Origin: a phage
Direction: 5' to 3' (one strand)
DNA length: 64,000 nucleotides
NCBI GenBank assembly: GCA_037574385.1
Contig: GCA_037574385.1_4529.1
Position numbers and translations under genes: made by a program. The number at the start of each line of letters is the position of its first letter. Within the stretch, counting starts at the first letter, position 1. Below the pieces are notes generated by a model that was not told the DNA's origin, did not search any database, and saw nothing but the letters and a program-made list of their open reading frames with translations. This document shows positions 8,356-64,000 of the stretch, in pieces.

Positions 8356-8802
8356 TTAGTAACTCTGCAGAATGAATTTGAAATTATCAGCCAGAAGACG
8401 GTTCATTTCAGTGAGTGTTTGATATTCTGACGTATGGTTGCGAGTGAATGCCAGAGCCAATTGACCTTTACCATAACCAGTGGTCAGTGGTTTCATGTTC
8501 TTAGCTGCAACAAAGATTACATCATATTCAATATTGTTAGTGCCCATGGTACGGGCTAGTTGCGAACGGCCTTGACGAATGTGAGAAAGAATTGCATCCA
8601 ACCCTTGTTTAGAACGTTGACGTCCTACAAAGAATCGTGCTGCTACTTGACGCCAATCAGATGAACCTTTAACAAAGAAGTAAAAACCTTCACGAGAACG
8701 AAACTCTTTAGAAACTTCAGAACCATATTCACCATTACGAACTACTGCAACAACTTCACCGCCAACTGCCAGAAGGTCTTTACGAGTTAAATATTTGGTC
8801 AT
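8356..8802 (-). CDS. ndd: nucleoid disruption protein Ndd
   Basis: 148 aa; ...[29 protein letters not shown]...[41 protein letters not shown] matches T4 Ndd. Confidence 0.85.
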
Positions 8803-8840
8803 GCTAATTTCCTCAATTGATTAATGTTTTTGTAATCCAT

Positions 8841-8876
8841 GAGAGCATTATACTCTGCTCTCAAGAGTTTGTACAA
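8841..8876 (-). promoter_or_regulatory. early promoter with -10 inside a hairpin loop (copy 1 of a 36-nt repeat)
   Basis: Minus strand TGTACAAACTCTTGAGAGCAGAGTATAATGCTCTC: -35-like, 17-nt spacer, TATAAT; GAGAGCA/TGCTCTC stem flanks the -10. Near-identical copy at 53237-53272. Confidence 0.5.
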
Positions 8877-8878
8877 TT

Positions 8879-9139
8879 TTATTCGGTCATATCAGAACGT
8901 TCAAAAAGCTCTTCAACAGTTAAACATTCGGTGTCATCCTCAATAAAGAATCGGGTCCAACACGTTGGGGCGATGCAGTTATGAGTTTGTCCAGCTATAG
9001 AAGCTACACGAATAAGCTGCTGACCATTATTCAGGACAAATTTTTCACCAATTTCAACATCTTTAAAAAGCTTAGCCATTTTGTATTCCTCATGTTTAAG
9101 TAGGACTACTATACCATAATCATACCGTGATGTAAACAA
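8879..9139 (-). CDS. hypothetical early protein (86 aa)
   Basis: ORF directly downstream of the promoter-hairpin; MAKLFKDVEIGEKF... Confidence 0.55.
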   Translation of the reverse strand: MFTSRYDYGIVVLLKHEEYKMAKLFKDVEIGEKFVLNNGQQLIRVASIAGQTHNCIAPTCWTRFFIEDDTECLTVEELFERSDMTE

Positions 9140-9329
9140 TTAAATTACATTAAAATATGTTAAAGCCAACCATGTTCCAGTGAACGAACATGCAATGTAA
9201 AAAACCGTATCACAAATTGTTTTTAGTACAATAAGAAGTGCATTTTTCATAAGTACCTCAATGCAATTGAAAATATTATACAAATCATAGGGATACTAAG
9301 CAACCATATTCCGATCCACATTTTAGAGC

Positions 9330-9593: not shown

Positions 9594-9661
9594 GATGTTA
9601 TCCTCTTTTAGATAGGACTACTGTATCATAGTCCTACTTAGTTGTAAACACTTTTATGAAA

Positions 9662-15091: not shown

Positions 15092-16907
15092 AGGACATCC
15101 ATTCTTTACGAAGTTCTGAATCATCACCCAACAACATTTCAAAGAGTTCTTTCCAATTTTCAGGAAGTTTAACTACGTCGTACACAGGGTTTTGAATCAT
15201 TTCACGATATTCTGACTTTTCAAGGGAGCCCAATCCCTTGATGTATCGAATACTATGCTTAGGCAGTGTATCTTTAGCTTCTTCATACTCAGCTACAGTA
15301 TAAAACCATTTTTGAGTTTTGCCGATTTGTGCAATAATTACAGGTGTTTTAACAAAGCGAATACGTCCTTGTTCAAACAATTCAGGCCAATTACTAAAGA
15401 AAGCAAGCAAAGCCGGATAGATACTTCCAAGACCGTCATGATCGGCATCGGTCATAATTGCAATATTACGATAGTTCGTATTCTCTGCCTTTTCACCAAG
15501 AATAAGACCTGTGATAGCACAGATATCAAAGAGCTCTTTGTTCTTCATCATATCGGCATATGACATACCCCAGCTATTCATCACCTTACCACGTAATGGG
15601 AATCCGCCGTGTAGTTCACGGTCACGAACATCAATGAGATATCCAATTGCCGAATCACCTTCTGTTAAAAACAATGTCGTATCTGCATCTTTACCGCATT
15701 GGTTAGCTTTAATATGCTTATGAACCTTAGCTTTAGTTGCCTTTTTAGCTGCTTTAGTTTCTGCAGCCTTTTCTGCTGCCAATTTACGAGCTAATGCTGC
15801 TTCAACAATAGGCATAATCAAGGCTTCGTTTTTAAGAAGTGCCTGAGCAATTTTCTTAGCATCTAATTGGATATGATTACGAATATCACCATACGTTGAC
15901 GTTAAACGTTCTTTAGTCTGAGAATCAAAACGCATGTTGCTCATGTCTCTAATAAACATCAACATTGTGAGACATTCTTTAACACGAGCTTTAGTGACTT
16001 CAATACCCTTATATTTCTTTTTAATACCCGGCAAAAGATGTTCGCAAATATCATCCATTACACATTCAACATGATGACCACCATTTTTAGTATGGATGTT
16101 ATTCACATAAGTTAAATGACGGAAGCCATCCGGTGATGTTGTGAATGCTATAGAGACTTTATCATTTTCTTGAATGATGTTATCTTCACCAAATTGTTTA
16201 GCAAATCGTTTAAAATTGCCATCAACCTTTTTACCATTAAATGTGAACTTGATATCAGGATAAACGACTGCCAATGTTTGAAGTCGGTCTAAAGTAATAT
16301 CTAAATAAATTTGAGATAAATTATGCTCTTCAAATGAAGTGAAATCAGGAGTGAAGATTACTTTAGTGCCTTTACCTTTAGATTTCTTAGAAGACCATGA
16401 TTTGTTTTCCATTCCGTTTGAACAGTTAACAGTGATTTCATTTTCGCCATCTGACGTGATGCCTGTAAACAACGTAGAGAAGATATTAGTTAAACTACTC
16501 CCGACGCCGTTCATACCACCTGTCTTGCGTTCAGAGTCGTCACCAAAGTTACCACCGGCCTTTGGAATAGTCCAGGCTGCTACAGGCCCAGGAATTTGTT
16601 CACCCGTTTGGTCGGTAACTAAACCTTGAGGAATACCACGTCCGTTATCTTCCACTGAAACTTGATTATTTTTAATTTGCACATCAATTTTATTTGCAAA
16701 CTTAAATGATGTACGAATAGCTTCATCAACCGAGTTGTCAATAATCTCATCGATTAATTTAACCAGACCAGGAACATATTCAACTTGTTGATATTTACCA
16801 AACAAAAAACGCTCATGTGCTTCTTTAGCTGAAGAACCAATATACATACCACTACGTTTCTTAATATGTTCTACATCTGACAGTACCTTAATTTCATTTT
16901 TAATCAT
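15090..16907 (-). CDS. 39: DNA topoisomerase II large subunit (GyrB-like), gp39 and gp60 as one uninterrupted ORF
   Basis: 605 aa: GHKL ATPase N-domain plus Toprim region; length equals T4 gp39 + gp60. Confidence 0.95.
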   Translation of the reverse strand: MIKNEIKVLSDVEHIKKRSGMYIGSSAKEAHERFLFGKYQQVEYVPGLVKLIDEIIDNSVDEAIRTSFKFANKIDVQIKNNQVSVEDNGRGIPQGLVTDQTGEQIPGPVAAWTIPKAGGNFGDDSERKTGGMNGVGSSLTNIFSTLFTGITSDGENEITVNCSNGMENKSWSSKKSKGKGTKVIFTPDFTSFEEHNLSQIYLDITLDRLQTLAVVYPDIKFTFNGKKVDGNFKRFAKQFGEDNIIQENDKVSIAFTTSPDGFRHLTYVNNIHTKNGGHHVECVMDDICEHLLPGIKKKYKGIEVTKARVKECLTMLMFIRDMSNMRFDSQTKERLTSTYGDIRNHIQLDAKKIAQALLKNEALIMPIVEAALARKLAAEKAAETKAAKKATKAKVHKHIKANQCGKDADTTLFLTEGDSAIGYLIDVRDRELHGGFPLRGKVMNSWGMSYADMMKNKELFDICAITGLILGEKAENTNYRNIAIMTDADHDGLGSIYPALLAFFSNWPELFEQGRIRFVKTPVIIAQIGKTQKWFYTVAEYEEAKDTLPKHSIRYIKGLGSLEKSEYREMIQNPVYDVVKLPENWKELFEMLLGDDSELRKEWMS

Positions 16908-16956
16908 GTTGTCTCCTCGTTATGAAGGTATTCTATCATCCGAAATCTAAAGCAAA

Positions 16957-16972
16957 AAGGGCCGAAGCCCTT
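16957..16972 (-). terminator. UUCG-tetraloop hairpin at 3' end of upstream gene
   Basis: Minus-strand RNA AAGGGC-UUCG-GCCCUU then U-rich. Confidence 0.45.
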
Positions 16973-17396
16973 ATTTAAATTTAATTTTCTGAAGTGCATC
17001 AATTGCAGCCAAACGCCCTTGTTCACTTTTAACTGTAATGACCACATCGCCTGATACGATCACCGAACCATCAACAAATTCTATAGAGTCTTTTTTGAAA
17101 TCGACAGCTGTATCTGGTTCCGGAACTTCTTCAAAGAATTTAAATTCTGCACCATAAATCAGAATATCACCTTGCATACTATGAATAGTTCGGCCATAAT
17201 CGCCTACGGCTTCTACAGCAATCATTGAAACACCGTAACCAATCATCTCTTCCACAATAAAATCTTTAGACAATAAAGTAGTATGCAGATTAGTATTAAG
17301 ACGTTTACCAGTCGTATTAAGAATTCTCAAGAAATTATCTTCCTGTCCTTTGATAATACGGTATTTCTTGCCAATTTCAAAACCTTTAAAAGCCAT
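16971..17396 (-). CDS. hypothetical early protein (141 aa)
   Basis: ORF in operon orientation. Confidence 0.55.
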   Translation of the reverse strand: MAFKGFEIGKKYRIIKGQEDNFLRILNTTGKRLNTNLHTTLLSKDFIVEEMIGYGVSMIAVEAVGDYGRTIHSMQGDILIYGAEFKFFEEVPEPDTAVDFKKDSIEFVDGSVIVSGDVVITVKSEQGRLAAIDALQKIKFK

Positions 17397-18009: not shown

Positions 18010-18263
18010 TAAGTTGTACCATTTTCAGTGATTTCACGGAAGATACCATAGATAGGCATTTCATCACCGAGTTTTTCGTAAACGTAAACCACTTCAGTGT
18101 AGCATAAAAATTCAGTCCAGTTTTTCTGTACAACAACTAAATCAGGATTAAACAGAACATCTTCAAACTCATCGATGTTTGAATCAGTAGTTACGTTTTT
18201 AATGATTTGACGTTTCATAATATTCTCCTCTTGTTTTGATAGGTCTATAGTATCATAGACCAT
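17991..18263 (-). CDS. hypothetical early protein (90 aa)
   Basis: ORF in operon orientation. Confidence 0.5.
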
Positions 18264-18275
18264 AGTTGTTGTACA

Positions 18276-18800
18276 TCATTTTAGCAAAATAAAATCAACT
18301 TGTTCTGCCAATGAACGTCTGAACATTAATTGACAACTTCCGAGGATGAAATCAGGTGCTTCATAGACCGCGATGTAGTATCCTTTAGCTTTCAAGAGTT
18401 CAACATCTACCTGGTCATCAAACCATGCATAAACCGCGTCAACACTTTCAAATCCAAAATAGAACCCTTGAGCCCAATCTTCACTCAATTCAAATGTGTG
18501 CTCAATTCTATAGTATCTTAAGATATTTTGTTCAAGGAGTTTATCTTCATTTACTGTAGGACGATTAGGGACATTATAGTTGTCGCCGTGATGGTAGAAA
18601 TTACCTGAGAGTATTCCATGTTTATCAAGGAACTCCCATGTTTCTTCAGAGTTGTCGGTGCCCGACCAACCGTAAGGTGAGCGAGGTTCTTTATTCCAAG
18701 AGGTTTCCCAAATTCTGACGGCTTTACCGTCTTCGATGGCAATTCCTGGTAATGATTCACGTTGAGTACAAAAACTACGTTCTACGCGGTAAACTAACAT
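18276..18800 (-). CDS. hypothetical early protein (174 aa)
   Basis: ORF preceded by RBS-sequestering hairpin/promoter element. Confidence 0.55.
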   Translation of the reverse strand: MLVYRVERSFCTQRESLPGIAIEDGKAVRIWETSWNKEPRSPYGWSGTDNSEETWEFLDKHGILSGNFYHHGDNYNVPNRPTVNEDKLLEQNILRYYRIEHTFELSEDWAQGFYFGFESVDAVYAWFDDQVDVELLKAKGYYIAVYEAPDFILGSCQLMFRRSLAEQVDFILLK

Positions 18801-18806
18801 ATTATT

Positions 18807-18847
18807 CTCCTCTGGTTGATACGGTTATAATATCAAAACCAGAGGAG
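18807..18847 (-). promoter_or_regulatory. 11-bp stem-loop with -10-like element in loop and Shine-Dalgarno in 3' arm
   Basis: CTCCTCTGGTT ... AACCAGAGGAG perfect inverted repeat; minus-strand 3' arm CAACCAGAGGAG is followed by AATAATATG. Confidence 0.5.
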
Positions 18848-18859
18848 AAGTAAACAACT

Positions 18860-19279
18860 TTATGCGAAAGCAGCCGGGCTATATTTTTTAATTTGGAATT
18901 CAGGAACTACCATGAACTGACCAGCGAAAACGATGTTATAAAGCTTAACACCATCTTCTACCCAACGGTCGCTAATAAATCCGGCGATTTGCTTAGTTTT
19001 CCATGGCGTTCCATCGGTTGCCGCAGCAATAGTGAATTCGTGGTCTTTTTCAACAGAAACTGATCTGCATAGTCCCCATTTGAACGCTTTTTCTTCTGGT
19101 TCAATGAATTGGCTTGAGACGTAGCCAATGTTGCCATCAGCATCACGAACTTTAACTTGATGTGGACTAAAGAGTCCACAACTTACAGAAAGAACTTCAA
19201 CCAACTTCCCAGCAACTTTAGAGCGAGAAGCAACAGATACATATACGTAATCACCAATAGAGAGATTTGCAATATTCAT
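18860..19279 (-). CDS. hypothetical protein, member of a 3-gene tandem paralog family
   Basis: C-terminal region shares ...GFISD.WVEDG.KLYNIVF.G.F.VV... with the next two genes. Confidence 0.6.
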   Translation of the reverse strand: MNIANLSIGDYVYVSVASRSKVAGKLVEVLSVSCGLFSPHQVKVRDADGNIGYVSSQFIEPEEKAFKWGLCRSVSVEKDHEFTIAAATDGTPWKTKQIAGFISDRWVEDGVKLYNIVFAGQFMVVPEFQIKKYSPAAFA

Positions 19280-19804: not shown

Positions 19805-19833
19805 ATTATACTCCATCCATCCTTGGATGTACA
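19805..19833 (-). promoter_or_regulatory. early promoter-hairpin repeat, copy with compensatory stem variant
   Basis: Minus strand TGTACA-[CATCC AAGGAT GGATG]-GAG-TATAAT; stem CATCC/GGATG where the other copies have CAACC/GGTTG. Confidence 0.55.
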
Positions 19834-20362: not shown

Positions 20363-20392
20363 ATTATACTCCAACCATCCTTGGTTGTAAAC
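20363..20392 (-). promoter_or_regulatory. early promoter-hairpin repeat (TTATACTCCAACCATCCTTGGTTGTAAACTG)
   Basis: Minus strand has GTTTACA, ~17-18-nt spacer containing CAACC..GGTTG stem, TATAAT; ~30 nt upstream of the gene start. Confidence 0.55.
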
Positions 20393-24274: not shown

Positions 24275-24409
24275 CTAAAAATTCAACATTTTCAAATGAA
24301 TGATTTTGTATAATCGAGATAAAGGGTCATATTCTAAGTCTTCAATTTCCACAATCTCAAATCTAGAGATACTTGAGACCATGTACTCTTGTTCAGATTG
24401 ACATGTCAT
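24275..24409 (-). CDS. possible small protein (~44 aa, below threshold)
   Basis: GGAGG 6 nt upstream of ATG; hand translation MTCQSEQEYMVSSISRFEIVEIEDLEYDPLSRLYKIIHLKMLNF. Confidence 0.35.
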   Translation of the reverse strand: MTCQSEQEYMVSSISRFEIVEIEDLEYDPLSRLYKIIHLKMLNF

Positions 24410-24806
24410 GATAGACCTCCATTTAAAGATAAGCCTATCATAACACGAGAGGAGGGAATGTAAACTACTTTTTAAGCTTTCCGACTAAAGGTCCATCAGG
24501 GCCAGGTTGTTCTAACATGAATGGTGATGCTTTAAGAAGCAATGCCAACCCTTTCACCATTCGATACCATATCTCAAAGTCCTTTTTCTTGGTTTCCACT
24601 AAGAATTGCTCTTTCAAATGCTCTTTCATTTCCAAGGACTCCACGGTGGTGGGTCGTCATAATAAGAGGCAAGGTCTTTCAGGGCTTCAACAGGTAAACT
24701 AAAGCCATGTCGTTGTATAATACTATCTAGTTCATCAACAAGTTCACTACGATGCACTTTAGGAGCCTCAACTTCAGGCTCATCAAACATACTCATCAAG
24801 TCCATA

Positions 24807-30051: not shown

Positions 30052-30114
30052 TTTAACTCCTTAGTTGATTTGATAGGACTACTATACTATAGTCCATCTA
30101 TAATGTAAACAAGT

Positions 30115-30363
30115 TTATTCTTTTTCGCGAATAATAATTACTTGTTGAGGCTGCTGAGCAGATTTCTTTTCGGCAACGATAGACCAAATTAAAGTTCCAA
30201 TCCAACCAACCATCGTCCAGTTAAAGAGCAAAGATACAAAGAAGATTGCTGTTGTGCTTTTTGTGCCACGAATAAGTGCGATTACCCAAGGCAACATGTA
30301 AATGATGATTGAACCAATACCTGCGATTAAAACTGCTACTGAACTAGCTACGAATAATTCCAT
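30115..30363 (-). CDS. small membrane protein (82 aa, two TM segments)
   Basis: Hydrophobic ORF in operon orientation. Confidence 0.5.
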   Translation of the reverse strand: MELFVASSVAVLIAGIGSIIIYMLPWVIALIRGTKSTTAIFFVSLLFNWTMVGWIGTLIWSIVAEKKSAQQPQQVIIIREKE

Positions 30364-31373: not shown

Positions 31374-31414
31374 CTCCAGTAGTTGATAGGTCTATAATAA
31401 CACAACTACTGGAG
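31374..31414 (-). promoter_or_regulatory. 12-bp stem-loop with -10-like element in loop and Shine-Dalgarno in 3' arm
   Basis: CTCCAGTAGTTG ... CAACTACTGGAG perfect inverted repeat; minus strand GTTTAC-17 nt-TATTAT; 3' arm ...CTGGAGAACAAAATG. Confidence 0.5.
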
Positions 31415-31422
31415 AAGTAAAC

Positions 31423-31797
31423 TTAAAAACGTAATTTAGATATATCTGCGTTGATTTCGTTTTGGTTTGCGTCGTATGCAATTAAACGAACCGCTTTAGA
31501 TGGGTCATTCAATGCATAGAAATGATGGAACATTGCTCGAACGATATCACCATTTACGAGTTCTACCTGGATAGGAGAACCTTTTTCTAGTTGGAAATGT
31601 TCATAAGCTTTGATGGTTCGCAGATAATCAAGTTTTTGATTTCCGGCTCCAACAATTTGTACGATACGTTTGCCCATGTTTTCCATACGAGATACAATAG
31701 TTTTAGGAGCAAGAATAACGTAGGTTGCCAACGGAGAAACTACTTCAACAGTTGTGTTTTCGGTGATTGCAGTAAAAATTGCTTGAGACATATTCAT
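31423..31797 (-). CDS. hypothetical protein (124 aa)
   Basis: First ORF downstream of 41. Confidence 0.5.
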   Translation of the reverse strand: MNMSQAIFTAITENTTVEVVSPLATYVILAPKTIVSRMENMGKRIVQIVGAGNQKLDYLRTIKAYEHFQLEKGSPIQVELVNGDIVRAMFHHFYALNDPSKAVRLIAYDANQNEINADISKLRF

Positions 31798-31863
31798 AAT
31801 GTTTTCCTCTTGGTTGGTGTAAGTACATCATATCATGCCTAGAGGAAGATGTAAACCCCGAAA

Positions 31864-41533: not shown

Positions 41534-44245
41534 TCAAAAATCGAACATATCGAACAGAGATGCTTTCTTCTCGTAATCGAGTTTCGCTGCTGATGTGAAT
41601 CCTTCAAGTGGTTTAATAAATGTCTTCTCAAGGAGAACCGTGTAGTCCATCCAATGAAGTACGTCGTCTTTAATTAAATCTGTGATTTCAGTACCAGAAG
41701 GCCATGCGATACATTTATCACCGAATGGGTTTCCTTCACGTAAAGGCAGAACATATACTTTTTCACCTTCTACAACTTGTGGTGCATCAATATTACCTTT
41801 GATAGCCCGGTTATACGTTAGAATTCCACGAATATGGAACGGGCATTTGGGACCCGGGAATCCACCTACATCATATTTAGCAATGTTATTCGCAGAAGAT
41901 ACCGACGCGATGCTAATATAATTCAATTGACGGAATTCTTTTTCAAACTCTTTAAAATACTCTTGTAATGATTCTTCACCTTCCTGAAGCATACGACGAA
42001 TACATTCCTTAAGAGCTTTCTGTACCGCTTTAGGAGTTGAAGATTTCTGTGTTTCGAGACCCATGATTTTGAGTTTAGGCTTAGCGTAACGAGTACCTTC
42101 CATATCCCACACGTTTAATGCATAACGTTTCTTACCAGTCCAAAATCCGCCAATACCTTTAGAACCGAGCGGAGGACCAGCGATAGCTTCTCGGTCCATG
42201 AACATCAAATGTTGCTTATTATTCATGTATTCGCACATTTCACGGAAACCTCTATCAATAGCAGGTTCCATACGTTCACGAGCGAACTTATCTAAGAAGT
42301 CTACCCAATGGTTGGTATCACGGAATTTAGATTCACCAACCTTATCAATAATTTTATCTGCAGATACATAAATGGAGTCTGTATCACCGTATAGAACGAA
42401 AGCTTCACCTTCTGTACCACAAACTTCGTTCAGATATTCATTAACTTTACGTTCAATCCACTGTAAAGCCATTTGCCCGAATGTTGTGATTGCAGTAGCA
42501 TTACGCAAATCATAATAACGGAACCAAACGTTGCCAAGTGCACCATAAAGTGAGTTGATAAGCAATTTACGGTTAATCTGTGCAGTCATACCTGCAACTT
42601 CAGTACGTTGAGCTCTAAACAACATTTCATTAAGAGATTTAGCAGACAACTTTTTAATCTTTTCTTTAATCTCGTCAGTGAAGTCGAAACGATAATCAAC
42701 ATCTAATGGTTCGTCAACAGAAAGATTAGGATTATGCAATGCCTCTTTAATTATTTCACCATTACGTTGAGCTGCAAGCATGTAACCTTTATGTTCTTTA
42801 CGCTGATTAAAGACCTTAGTGATTTCAGTTGGAACTACACCATCACGGTCTTTATAATACATCATGCCATTAGGAGAGCAACTGTACACATCTGAAGGAC
42901 GTTCAGCAACAGCGTTAATATAATCATGTAATGGAGCTACTTTAAACGTTCCTGCTATTGTTTCTGGGCTAATATTCACTTGGCGAATAATACTTGGATA
43001 CAGAGATGTAAGGTCGAAACTCATTACATATTTGTATCGATTTGGAATAGGTTCCTTAACAAAAGCGCCTGGGTAAGGTTGAACCGGGTGAGAACGACCT
43101 TGTGGAATCACCTTGTTCTGCTCTTTAAGGCTATTAAAAATAATAGCATCCCATGTTTTAATTGGGCTAAACACAGATTGAATCTGTATCTTAGCATAAT
43201 AACCCATGTCCAAACTCAAGTTGATGAACTGACGCTTAGCATCAATTTGCAATACACGATACACGTCGATAATGTTATAAGAAATATATCGTTGGTGATT
43301 GCTTTCACGAAGCTTAGAAATAGGGCCGTCATATTTCAGTTTACCAACGTTCAATTCAAATTCTGAAATGTAATCCAGAGAATACGACGGTTGATTGGTA
43401 AAAGAGAATTTTTTGTAAAGGTCAATGTAATCAAGAACAGAGATACCGAACAATGTAATGATTTCACGAGAACCATACATGTTTTCGATAACTTTAACAT
43501 GAGTTTTACGATGTGGTGATAAACGTTTCGCAGTAGATTCGCCAAAAATATTCTTGATTCGGTTATACACATATGGAATATCAAATGACTCAACGTTCCA
43601 TCCGGTTAAAATGACAGGAGTTTTCTGTTGCCAGAAGTTGAGATATTCCATCAACAATTCTTTTTCGTTATCGAACGGCATATAAATGATTTTATCAATA
43701 ATTTCGGATGGAACTTCATCACCACCTTGTTCTTGAAGCTTAGCAGCGATTTCAATAGACCATTCTTCTACATTACCATATGGAGAATTCAATAGATCAA
43801 ATACGTAAAACCTGTCGTCAATTGAGTCATAATGAGTGATAGCATCAATCGGATGTTTTGCTTGTGACGGCTCAGGGAACCCATCCGGAGATGTTACTTC
43901 GATGTCGAAGTTAGCCACACGAATTTTTGTATGGTCGTATTTGATTTCATAGTTATAAGTGTCAGACAAATACGCCAATTTGAAATCGTCCATGCCAAGT
44001 GCTTCAAGTCCGATATCTTCCATGCGTTTAATCCATTGGGAGGCATCACGCATATTAGCGAACAACTTACGAGTACACGACTTACCGTAGATATCGAAAT
44101 ATTTCGTAGCCTGACTTTCTGGACAATGAGCAAACAGTGATGGTTTATATTCTACTTCACGAGTACGTTCACGGCCATTAGAATCGATGTAACGTTCAAA
44201 AATTGAATCACCGATCTGTTCAACCGTTAAGTAAAATTCTTTCAT
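41534..44245 (-). CDS. 43: DNA polymerase gp43 (family B)
   Basis: 903 aa; exonuclease motifs, YGDTDS polymerase motif; N-terminus MKEFYLTVEQIGDSIFERYIDSNGRERTREVEYKPSLFAH... matches my memory of RB69 gp43. Confidence 0.97.
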   Translation of the reverse strand: MKEFYLTVEQIGDSIFERYIDSNGRERTREVEYKPSLFAHCPESQATKYFDIYGKSCTRKLFANMRDASQWIKRMEDIGLEALGMDDFKLAYLSDTYNYEIKYDHTKIRVANFDIEVTSPDGFPEPSQAKHPIDAITHYDSIDDRFYVFDLLNSPYGNVEEWSIEIAAKLQEQGGDEVPSEIIDKIIYMPFDNEKELLMEYLNFWQQKTPVILTGWNVESFDIPYVYNRIKNIFGESTAKRLSPHRKTHVKVIENMYGSREIITLFGISVLDYIDLYKKFSFTNQPSYSLDYISEFELNVGKLKYDGPISKLRESNHQRYISYNIIDVYRVLQIDAKRQFINLSLDMGYYAKIQIQSVFSPIKTWDAIIFNSLKEQNKVIPQGRSHPVQPYPGAFVKEPIPNRYKYVMSFDLTSLYPSIIRQVNISPETIAGTFKVAPLHDYINAVAERPSDVYSCSPNGMMYYKDRDGVVPTEITKVFNQRKEHKGYMLAAQRNGEIIKEALHNPNLSVDEPLDVDYRFDFTDEIKEKIKKLSAKSLNEMLFRAQRTEVAGMTAQINRKLLINSLYGALGNVWFRYYDLRNATAITTFGQMALQWIERKVNEYLNEVCGTEGEAFVLYGDTDSIYVSADKIIDKVGESKFRDTNHWVDFLDKFARERMEPAIDRGFREMCEYMNNKQHLMFMDREAIAGPPLGSKGIGGFWTGKKRYALNVWDMEGTRYAKPKLKIMGLETQKSSTPKAVQKALKECIRRMLQEGEESLQEYFKEFEKEFRQLNYISIASVSSANNIAKYDVGGFPGPKCPFHIRGILTYNRAIKGNIDAPQVVEGEKVYVLPLREGNPFGDKCIAWPSGTEITDLIKDDVLHWMDYTVLLEKTFIKPLEGFTSAAKLDYEKKASLFDMFDF

Positions 44246-50884: not shown

Positions 50885-51024
50885 AAGTCTAACGCCGTTA
50901 TCGCAATGCAAAATAAAACCACAGAAATTAATCCATCTGGGGTACTAAAGAAACCTATCCAACACGCCCTAGTGAATAGATAGAAGGCTAATATCAATAT
51001 AGTCACACCTAAAAATATAATCAT
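50881..51024 (-). CDS. possible small membrane protein (~47 aa, below threshold)
   Basis: Hand translation MIIFLGVTILILAFYLFTRACWIGFFSTPDGLISVVLFCIAITALDL; stop overlaps gp47 ATG (ATGA). Confidence 0.35.
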   Translation of the reverse strand: MIIFLGVTILILAFYLFTRACWIGFFSTPDGLISVVLFCIAITALDL

Positions 51025-51071
51025 ATGTTTTCCTCATTAGTTGGTTCATTTTATCATCCAGAATATAAAGC

Positions 51072-51100
51072 AAAAAAAAAGGAAGCACTAGGCTTCCTTT
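51072..51100 (-). terminator. rho-independent terminator at the alpha-gt locus
   Basis: GGAAGC/GCTTCC stem with 5-nt loop; minus strand followed by U9. Confidence 0.65.
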
Positions 51101-52647: not shown

Positions 52648-52875
52648 TCATTCTAATTCCTTCGCTGCAAATAAGGCAGCATCCAACGAATCAAATTGGT
52701 CAACGAAATCAATATTCAACGCATCGTCAACCGTAGCATATAACCACCATTGTTTGAATTCGTATTCTAGAATAAATCCAGGACCTTCAATCTGAGGAAG
52801 ACCTAGGCTATTTGTACCAACTTCGTAACCAGCTAGACGCAGGTCATTAATCAAAGTTTCTGTTAATACGCTCAT
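52648..52875 (-). CDS. hypothetical protein (75 aa)
   Basis: ORF in operon orientation between nrdG and 55. Confidence 0.5.
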   Translation of the reverse strand: MSVLTETLINDLRLAGYEVGTNSLGLPQIEGPGFILEYEFKQWWLYATVDDALNIDFVDQFDSLDAALFAAKELE

Positions 52876-53243
52876 TTTGCCGCCTTAACAATTTTCAGGT
52901 CAATGAATTTTTTCTTACGTTGATTTTTCATACGACGGATAGTCTTTTCAGAGATTTCATGTTTCTGATAAGCTTTAGATTCAACACCAAATGCAGCAAC
53001 GTCAAATTCAGAAAGAATATATTGTACTAGAATTTCACGAATAGAATTACGTCCAATTTTCTGGTCGTGTTTTTGCATGATTTCATAAAGACGGAATTCC
53101 CACGCGTCAAGAACTTGAGGAGTAACAATATTGCCGGATTCCAGAAGAGCAACAACTTTATCGAAAGCGAAAGAATTAACTACGTTTTTGATTTTAGTAG
53201 ACATATTATTTTCCTCGGTTATTTTATTATCCAACGAGAGCAT
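52872..53243 (-). CDS. hypothetical protein (123 aa)
   Basis: ORF immediately downstream of the promoter-hairpin repeat. Confidence 0.55.
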   Translation of the reverse strand: MLSLDNKITEENNMSTKIKNVVNSFAFDKVVALLESGNIVTPQVLDAWEFRLYEIMQKHDQKIGRNSIREILVQYILSEFDVAAFGVESKAYQKHEISEKTIRRMKNQRKKKFIDLKIVKAAK

Positions 53244-53272
53244 TATACTCTGCTCTCAAGAGTCTGTACACT
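53237..53272 (-). promoter_or_regulatory. early promoter with -10 inside a hairpin loop (copy 2 of the 36-nt repeat)
   Basis: GAGAGCATTATACTCTGCTCTCAAGAGTCTGTACA, one mismatch to copy at 8841-8876. Confidence 0.5.
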
Positions 53273-53510
53273 ATTTTTTAAGCATGAAAAGCAAGTAATT
53301 TGTATCACGTGGAGTAATATCAACACCCATATCAAAGATGCCTTTATAGATTGGGTATTTGTTTTCGGTTGTATCGAAGCTGAAACTATTTCCATCACAT
53401 CTAACAGTAATGGCATCTGTTAAAATGTCATACTCAATCCTAACAATTGAATCCCCAATTTTAACGTCGAGGTGTTTTTTGAATTTGATAAAATCTAATT
53501 CTTCGGCCAT
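53271..53510 (-). CDS. hypothetical protein (79 aa)
   Basis: ORF in operon orientation. Confidence 0.45.
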   Translation of the reverse strand: MAEELDFIKFKKHLDVKIGDSIVRIEYDILTDAITVRCDGNSFSFDTTENKYPIYKGIFDMGVDITPRDTNYLLFMLKK

Positions 53511-61174: not shown

Positions 61175-61203
61175 ATTATACTCCAACCATCCTTGGTTGT
61201 AAA
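61175..61203 (-). promoter_or_regulatory. early promoter-hairpin repeat
   Basis: Identical to the 20363-20392 copy (ATTATACTCCAACCATCCTTGGTTGTAAA). Confidence 0.55.
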
Positions 61204-62192: not shown

Positions 62193-62222
62193 ATTATACT
62201 CCAACCATCCTTGGTTGTACAT
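62193..62222 (-). promoter_or_regulatory. early promoter-hairpin repeat
   Basis: ATTATACTCCAACCATCCTTGGTTGTACA; same element with -35 variant. Confidence 0.55.
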
Positions 62223-63807: not shown

Positions 63808-64000
63808 GTTTTACCTCCAGTAGTTGATAGGTCTATAATAACATAACCATAGACCTTGTAAACAACTAAAAGAAACTTTTTTCGGTATTTTTTCCACTGA
63901 ACCAAACAGACTTCGGGATTTTTTGTAATTTTTCAGATTTAAGTTTCTCTTCCTGTTCTTTCTTATATACACCCTTGTCGTACTGGAGCATCTCTATGGC

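Follow-up and report, generated by a model that had tools for sequence, protein, structure and literature searches.

Two stretches of 35 nt that lie 44 kb apart in a phage genome and differ at a single base raise the question of what keeps them alike and what they do. Both belong to the 64,000-nt stretch of phage DNA analysed here (GCA_037574385.1, contig GCA_037574385.1_4529.1), which is called the window throughout this paper. An earlier note had described them as a promoter-in-hairpin element that stands in front of unrelated small genes and shuffles them as a mobile or recombinogenic unit. Judged from the sequence and from its relatives, the repeat is real and functional, yet ordinary: it is a known kind of phage regulatory cassette, and it marks recombination junctions. 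We put at roughly 0.8 the probability that each copy is an early-promoter cassette of the PeSL (promoter-early stem-loop) type, carrying a selected sense-strand hairpin whose stem-loop overlaps the -10 box.

Two copies of a candidate early promoter

Copy 1 (plus strand, 8841-8875) reads GAGAGCATTATACTCTGCTCTCAAGAGTTTGTACA, copy 2 occupies 53236-53270, and the plus-strand pattern common to both is GAGAGCATTATACTCTGCTCTCAAGAGT(T/C)TGTACA, the lone mismatch being T8869 in copy 1 against C53264 in copy 2. The repeat with its single mismatch was therefore described correctly at the outset, but the unit, given as 36 nt with a second copy at 53237-53272, measures 35 nt and its second copy starts at 53236. 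Searching the window at up to 3 mismatches returned these two matches, compared with none in 100 dinucleotide-preserving shuffles, and no further copy was found in the window with as many as 11 mismatches allowed. Weaker similarity of the copies reaches 57 nt at 82% (repeat search, family D10). Their 17-nt spacers agree at 16/17 positions, against a mean of 6.5/17 over all pairs of the window's candidate early promoters with a spacer of that length; the similarity of the copies exceeds promoter consensus. Both neighbourhoods are 96-98% identical to RB69-like T4-type coliphages (Mosigvirus: phiC120, JS09, APCEc01, RB69), and the window itself belongs to a phage of this genus.

Read on the minus strand, each copy runs TGTACA-17 nt-TATAAT-GCTCTC, the layout of a sigma-70 or T4 early promoter (Table 1). 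The boxes of both copies match the sigma-70 consensus at 10 of 12 positions, and both copies are intergenic and point toward the downstream gene; their -35 box is TGTACA, whereas the T4 consensus is GTTTAC, but otherwise they fit the extended T4/RB69 early consensus (A-rich UP region, TATAAT, and C-rich positions -3 to -1). The upstream edges read cgaaTAAaat-TGTACA in copy 1 and aaaaaaTAG-TGTACA in copy 2, and downstream of both stand GAGGAA and an ATG. From sigma-70 geometry and the 3' ends of the RB69 promoter models, transcription is predicted to start at A8840 (copy 1) and G53235 (copy 2). The RB69 promoters Pe:165022 (164972-165022) and Pe:42515 (42465-42515) were predicted to be early promoters by a hidden Markov model (HMM; Nolan et al., 2006; PMC1524935). 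They occupy the sites orthologous to copies 1 and 2, with HMM scores of 18.2 and 8.9, respectively; the hairpin, the pairwise identity and a role of these sites in recombination are not described in that paper. A MotA-dependent middle promoter was rejected, no TGCTT box being seen at -30 on reading the sequence. The T4 GenBank/RefSeq records contain no promoter annotation.

Because the annotated genes around the copies, early genes among them, all lie on the minus strand, copy 1 stands 3' of ndd.1 and 5' of ndd. It had been placed upstream of an 86-aa ORF (8879-9139), but this ORF is ndd.1 (8879-9079 with its annotated start), and the order is the reverse. Copy 2 does precede the gene proposed for it, which is 55.2; that gene had been given as 123 aa (52872-53243), but its real start is ATG 53204 (110 aa), and ATG 53243 falls inside the -10 box. 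The predicted promoter of copy 1 thus drives ndd and that of copy 2 drives gene 55.2. These are conserved T-even early genes, and the variable ORFs are their upstream neighbours, contrary to the idea that the cassettes front unrelated, shuffled accessory genes.

Elsewhere in the window, promoter-like sites overlap on both strands at 63810-63862 (plus, 63810-63839; minus, 63835-63862), in a long palindromic region before a minus-strand gene.

Table 1. Coordinates of the two cassettes and of the features next to them in the window
Feature	Position	Strand	Remarks
Copy 1, -35 hexamer TGTACA	8870..8875	-	stop TAA of ndd.1 (8879-8881) and A/T-rich stretch just upstream
Copy 1, -10 hexamer TATAAT	8847..8852	-	17-nt spacer
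Copy 1, hairpin	8841..8862	-	5' arm GAGAGCA 8862-8856, loop GAGTATAA 8855-8848, 3' arm TGCTCTC 8847-8841; from fold and covariation
Copy 1, RegB-like motif GGAUUACAAAA	8828..8838	-	deviates at positions 5 and 7 (C at 7)
SD GAGGAA (8814-8809) and ndd (8356-8802, ATG 8802, 148 aa)	8356..8814	-	downstream of copy 1
Copy 2, -35 hexamer TGTACA	53265..53270	-	abuts stop TAG (53271-53273) of RB69ORF075c
Copy 2, -10 hexamer TATAAT	53242..53247	-	17-nt spacer
Copy 2, hairpin	53236..53257	-	5' arm 53257-53251, loop 53250-53243, 3' arm 53242-53236; from fold and covariation
Copy 2, RegB motif GGAUAAUAAAA	53222..53232	-	identical to 11-mer in T4 55.2 leader
SD GAGGAA (53216-53211) and gene 55.2 (ATG 53204, 110 aa)	52872..53216	-	downstream of copy 2
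RB69ORF075c homologue, 79 aa	53271..53510	-	variable ORF bounded by cassette; ~70-75% identical to JS09, absent from Tequatroviruses
Degenerate promoter/stem-loop	53511..53570	-	GTTTAC and imperfect hairpin, no good -10; other edge of divergent ORF075c block

The hairpin around the -10 box

The cassette can be traced through several genera. BLAST of the 45-nt element matched 721 phage records, with 3-4 places in each Mosigvirus and one, before motB, in T4-like phages; in T4 itself the motB copy, the promoter TTTACAaactcttGGGACCAgagtataaTGGTCCC, is the only homologue at BLAST sensitivity. The complete JS09 genome holds four copies, before ndd, 55.2, e.6 and RB69ORF231c, the last two being places seen in relatives and lying outside the window. 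IMG/VR was scanned with the pattern AACTCT-N7-AGAGTATAAT, in which the flanks were fixed and the stem positions left free. The scan placed the cassette before motB in T4-like phages; before ndd, 55.2, e.6 and ORF231c in Mosigvirus; before 55.2 and a variable ORF in JS98-like Dhakavirus; and before ndd, motB and an extra ORF in VR26-like Gaprivervirus.

Folded on its own, the hairpin reaches -10.2 kcal/mol (z = -3.7), and its stem spans about -22 to -1 in both copies. The GAGAGCA/TGCTCTC stem noticed earlier, said to hold the minus-strand TATAAT in its loop, is present; more exactly, N3 and TATAA make up the 8-nt loop, and the 3' arm begins at the final T of the -10 box. In an alignment of 19 distinct sequences from four genera (133 stem cells), standard pairs occupy 133/133 cells. 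Four of the seven pairs have changed on both sides, one pair of columns showing G-C, C-G and U-A, and the alignment scores 0.45 for covariation, a level reached by 0/500 shuffles, whose own value is 0.215; when the partner columns were slid by 1-3 positions as a control, pairing dropped to 41-49%. The stem variants are GAGAGCA/TGCTCTC, AGGAGCA/TGCTCCT, GGGACCA/TGGTCCC, GGGAGCA/TGCTCCC and GGGGTCA/TGACCCC; RB69 itself has one more compensatory pair, and T.T at the loop-closing position. Unrelated, non-phage matches to the scan pattern mostly had 1-4 of the 7 positions paired, with a few at 5 or 6. The number of independent compensatory events is about 5-7 rather than 17, because the search fixed AACTCT and AGAGTATAAT and the sequences are related. 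Selection on a 7-bp stem around the -10 box, maintained by compensatory substitutions, is strongly supported by these comparisons, in keeping with the original description of a promoter whose -10 box lies inside a hairpin loop.

The imperfect pairs bear on the form in which the stem acts. All 10 such cells are sense-strand G.U, with no A.C among them; the wobble intermediates are of at least five kinds, and the probability that none would be A.C is ~0.03 under no strand preference. This sense-only wobble points to an RNA hairpin in read-through transcripts, or to sense single-stranded DNA, and not to a duplex DNA site. Since the predicted start directly follows the stem, the promoter's own transcript would lack the 5' arm and the hairpin would form only in read-through RNA. 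A known structured RNA was ruled out, the Rfam covariance-model search of the whole window giving no match at gathering score. No U-run follows the stem in either copy (AUGGAUUAC and GUUGGAUAA), so the hairpin is not a canonical intrinsic terminator, and terminator scans did not call it at either copy; the Mosigvirus record SA35RD nevertheless annotates the hairpin of the ndd promoter as a rho-independent terminator (TransTermHP/WebGeSTer).

A significant local hairpin accompanies 15/33 candidate early promoters in JS09, compared with 0/8 on the control strand, and that genome has at least three promoter families that share a spacer, with 3-4, 4 and 6 copies. Further families were observed in the window. 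Four early promoters on the minus strand (19805-19833, 20363-20391, 61175-61203 and 62193-62221) share the spacer accaaggatggttggag, in which a hairpin, CAACCA-AGGA-TGGTTG, lies wholly between the -35 box and the -10 box; the copy at 19833 has the compensatory change ATCCA/TGGAT. They represent a second PeSL family, of which JS09 likewise has 4 copies. The loop geometry of the element recurs in an unrelated family, GATAGGACTA-tgtTATAG-TAGTCCTATC: the minus-strand promoters TAGGACTA-...TATAGT-AGTCCTA at 9096-9145, 9608-9657, 18235-18284 and 30069-30118 have an 8-nt loop made of N3 and the first five bases of the -10 box, with 6 copies in JS09 and imperfections that are G.T only. In other minus-strand early promoters (18807-18870, 31374-31437, 63815-63878, ~24400-24470 and ~31800-31855), an anti-SD in the spacer (e.g., TTCTCCAGTAGTTG) base-pairs with the driven gene's SD or start codon over 7-18 bp, so that the ribosome-binding site (RBS) would be occluded in read-through RNA and free in promoter-initiated RNA. 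They resemble the T4 e, soc, 49 and I-TevI arrangement discussed below, with an early instead of a late promoter in the hairpin.

The RegB-type motif 3' of the stem

Conserved bases run on 3' of the stem (ATGGATTACAAAA and GTTGGATAATAAAA; GTGGAGTATAAAA at T4 motB) and contain a RegB-type motif, GGA(G/U) followed by an A-rich stretch, at about +3/+4 to +13/+14. The RegB/S1 site is an 11-nt sequence, GGAG/U-R-A-Y-A-R-A-A, and the GGAG of the T4 motB leader is a model substrate; RegB cleaves just two intergenic GGAU sites of T4 in vivo, including that of orf 55.2, and an in vivo 5' end of the T4 motB transcript is also mentioned (Durand et al., 2006; PMC1702504). In T4, the 55.2 leader has the sequence ...GGGCTTCGGCCTTTTTGGATAATAAAAT..., and the 11-mer it shares with copy 2, GGAUAAUAAAA, fits the motif, is unpaired in the predicted fold and lies in an early intergenic leader. 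The corresponding GGAUUACAAAA of copy 1 is probably a poor or weak RegB substrate, because the C at its position 7 is unseen in cleaved T4 sites. The regB gene is present in the relative JS09, outside the window.

The T4 motB leader (Durand et al., 2006; PMC1702504) is a direct homologue of the cassette, TTTACA-AACTCTTGGGACCAGAG-TATAAT-GGTCCC-GU-GGAGUAUAAAA. It has the same spacer frame, a stem kept by two compensatory pairs and a RegB motif at about +3, but differs in locus (motB against ndd and 55.2) and in having GGAG where GGAU is found here. At its own ndd and 55.2 loci, T4 has no promoter, yet a hairpin followed by a RegB-type motif is found at each: GGCCG...CGGCC-uu-GGAGUAGAAAA before ndd, and GGGCUUCGGCCU-U4-GGAUAAUAAAA before 55.2. 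Because both parts occur there without the promoter, hairpin and RegB site are suggested, though not proven, to act as a unit, and they may, though this is less likely than not, form one conserved RNA-processing module independent of the promoter. In the Mosigvirus cassette, a promoter appears to have been built into the hairpin at the ndd and 55.2 places. If the module reading is true, RegB/S1 would cleave read-through RNA a few nucleotides past the 3' side of the stem. Such a cut would leave the upstream cistron with a protective hairpin at its 3' end, and the leader of the downstream cistron would begin with a 5'-OH and be destined for decay; RNA started at the promoter itself would have the same RegB site at about +3.

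At the 55.2 copy, the -35 box is degraded in RB69 (42465-42499, TATACA) and in JS09 (128980-129014, TGCATA), with the stem, the -10 box and the RegB motif kept; at this locus the constraint seems tighter on the hairpin and RegB part than on the -35 box. A scan of the window for a hairpin before a RegB motif gave just 5 motif matches, 2 of which are really terminators with MotA-box middle promoters. A hairpin of the terminator type, with a U-run, stands immediately before the MotA-box middle promoter TTTGCTTTA-12-TAAAAT/TAGAAT at ~51020-51100 and ~16900-16980 (minus strand); such promoters mimic the RegB motif because their -10 region reads GGATGATA(A/G)AAT.

PeSL kinship, recombination and rival readings

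PeSLs combine sigma-70 boxes, an SD and an ATG with an A/T-rich upstream region that contains a stop codon; their stem-loops usually lie between the boxes or overlap the -10, and G-T pairs occur in the stems (Arbiol et al., 2010; PMC2839356). They occur in many copies in hyperplastic regions, show promoter and attenuator activity, and recombine to give indels and mini-circles (Arbiol et al., 2010; PMC2839356); the class was later extended to T4/PST and KVP40/nt-1 (Comeau et al., 2014; PMC4122927). The window cassette shares all of the sequence features (boxes, A/T-rich region with stop, stem-loop, SD and ATG), and resembles PeSLs further in having many near-identical copies per genome (4 in JS09) and in lying at indel or replacement junctions of small ORFs. 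Some differences were also recognized. The published PeSLs come from RB49/phi1, T4/PST and KVP40/nt-1, whereas the cassette comes from an RB69-like phage; the RB49 stems are G/C tracts, unlike those of the cassette; the T4/PST stems are placed immediately upstream of the promoter (Comeau et al., 2014; PMC4122927), whereas the window stem runs from about -22 to -1; and the window stem has no U-tract. Neither Arbiol et al. (2010; PMC2839356) nor Comeau et al. (2014; PMC4122927) mentions RB69, motB, 55.2 or RegB, and the cassette family, its covariation and the adjacent RegB motif are therefore small additions. A further comparison is offered by the RBS-occluding hairpins of T4 e, soc, 49 and I-TevI (PMC3014915), where, as here, a promoter lies inside a hairpin whose full structure exists in read-through RNA alone; those promoters are late and the SD or AUG is sequestered, whereas the window stem leaves the SD free.

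The flanks fit recombination at the cassettes. Identity between the window and JS09 is ~97-100% through 55.3, falls to ~64-80% across ORF075c (53550 to 53254) and jumps inside copy 2, from about 70% to 99%, to stay at 98-100% thereafter; the final differences affect the -35 box, one stem base and +1. A mosaic junction between the two phages is accordingly placed inside copy 2 by this comparison. No such junction was found at copy 1 within Mosigvirus, where the region is collinear at ~97% with JS09 and APCEc01. Comparison of flanks among related genomes, which the earlier note had proposed, disclosed presence, absence and replacement of ORFs beside the cassettes in T4, VR26 and JS98-like phages. 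Tequatroviruses lack ORF075c together with its cassette (~313 nt); the Mosigvirus order ndd.1-[cassette]-ndd corresponds in VR26 to ndd.1-[cassette]-114-aa ORF-[cassette]-ndd; among JS98-like phages, three different ORFs occur behind one shared upstream ORF and cassette; and e.6 has two alternative upstream neighbours. Stems of different loci within a genome are more alike than orthologous stems across genera, as in VR20-type phages, where the ndd and motB stems are both GGGGTCA/TGACCCC while the Mosigvirus ndd stem is GAGAGCA, and this likeness is consistent with gene conversion. The proposal of a recombinogenic promoter unit that exchanges adjacent small ORFs thus fits the copy 2 junction, the gain, loss and replacement of ORFs near the cassettes and the published PeSL model, of which it is essentially a restatement and not a new idea; autonomous mobility, the other half of the proposal, is not supported. 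Apart from the cassettes, the window lacks 185 nt of JS09 (most of RB69ORF072c) at ~52574, between 55.1 and gene 55, and identity with JS09 shifts from ~92% to 99% across this point.

Could the likeness of the copies be mere strong promoter consensus, convergence or chance, with the inverted repeat an accident? T4-type early promoters do have an unusually extended consensus, and C is preferred at -3 to -1 in RB69 promoters, but a spacer match of 16/17 stands far above the 6.5/17 mean, no match is expected in shuffles and the stem covaries across four genera; on these three grounds similarity by chance or consensus only was ruled out, and we regard this explanation as extremely improbable. A more serious competitor is that the hairpin mainly terminates the upstream gene, forming the promoter-terminator composite that the PeSL authors proposed. 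One RB49 PeSL stem-loop equalled rrnB T1 in how strongly it reduced lacZ read-through (Arbiol et al., 2010; PMC2839356), and a UUCG hairpin with U5 stands at the equivalent place before 55.2 in T4, while the SA35RD annotation treats the ndd hairpin in the same way. The window stem, however, is just 7 bp at -10 kcal/mol. It is followed by no U-run and leaves the terminator scan silent, for which two reasons its identity as an intrinsic terminator was rejected; moreover, the upstream neighbours of ndd and 55.2 probably rely in part on read-through. Termination as the main role is rather unlikely.

The inverted repeat may instead act as DNA, either as the operator of a dimeric phage repressor or as a cruciform or single-strand hairpin that targets recombination or a nuclease. 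Palindromic operator half-sites would co-vary as well, the shut-off factor of T4 early promoters is not known, a stem-specific recombination protein was speculated upon by the PeSL authors (Arbiol et al., 2010; PMC2839356), and a recombination junction lies inside copy 2. Yet one genome carries GAGAGCA, AGGAGCA and the unrelated stems of other promoter families, and a single protein could not read all of these different stems. The restriction of imperfect pairs to G.T on the sense strand, with none A.C, also fits RNA or a single DNA strand and would not be anticipated of a duplex operator or a two-armed cruciform. A role as DNA is very improbable, and an early-promoter cassette with a selected sense-strand hairpin is preferred.

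For such a cassette the following mechanism is proposed. Host sigma-70 RNA polymerase would fire the promoters as soon as infection begins, with transcription starting directly behind the 3' arm, so that the promoter's own mRNA would be free of the hairpin and read-through transcripts from upstream promoters would contain it. There, directly before the RegB endoribonuclease motif, the hairpin would punctuate the polycistronic RNA, attenuating or pausing read-through and/or giving the upstream cistron a protective 3' stem; its exact role in RNA is less certain than the identity of the cassette. The very active homologous recombination of these phages would keep the cassettes alike by gene conversion, and the ~50-nt cassettes, being near-identical within a genome, may serve as crossover points for gain, loss or replacement of the small ORFs beside them. 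Recombination between the two window copies would presumably be lethal, because the intervening replication genes would be deleted.

Current understanding is not overturned by these cassettes. What they add is that covariation with sense-only wobble indicates a stem working as read-through RNA (or sense single-stranded DNA), and that a RegB-type motif lies consistently 3' of the stem, one being identical to a site cut experimentally in T4. Through one traceable cassette family, the PeSL picture is extended to the coliphages of Mosigvirus (RB69-like), Dhakavirus (JS98-like) and Gaprivervirus (VR26-like), in which the cassettes are strong candidate early promoters and predictable recombination junctions for engineering and comparing therapeutic T4-type phages.
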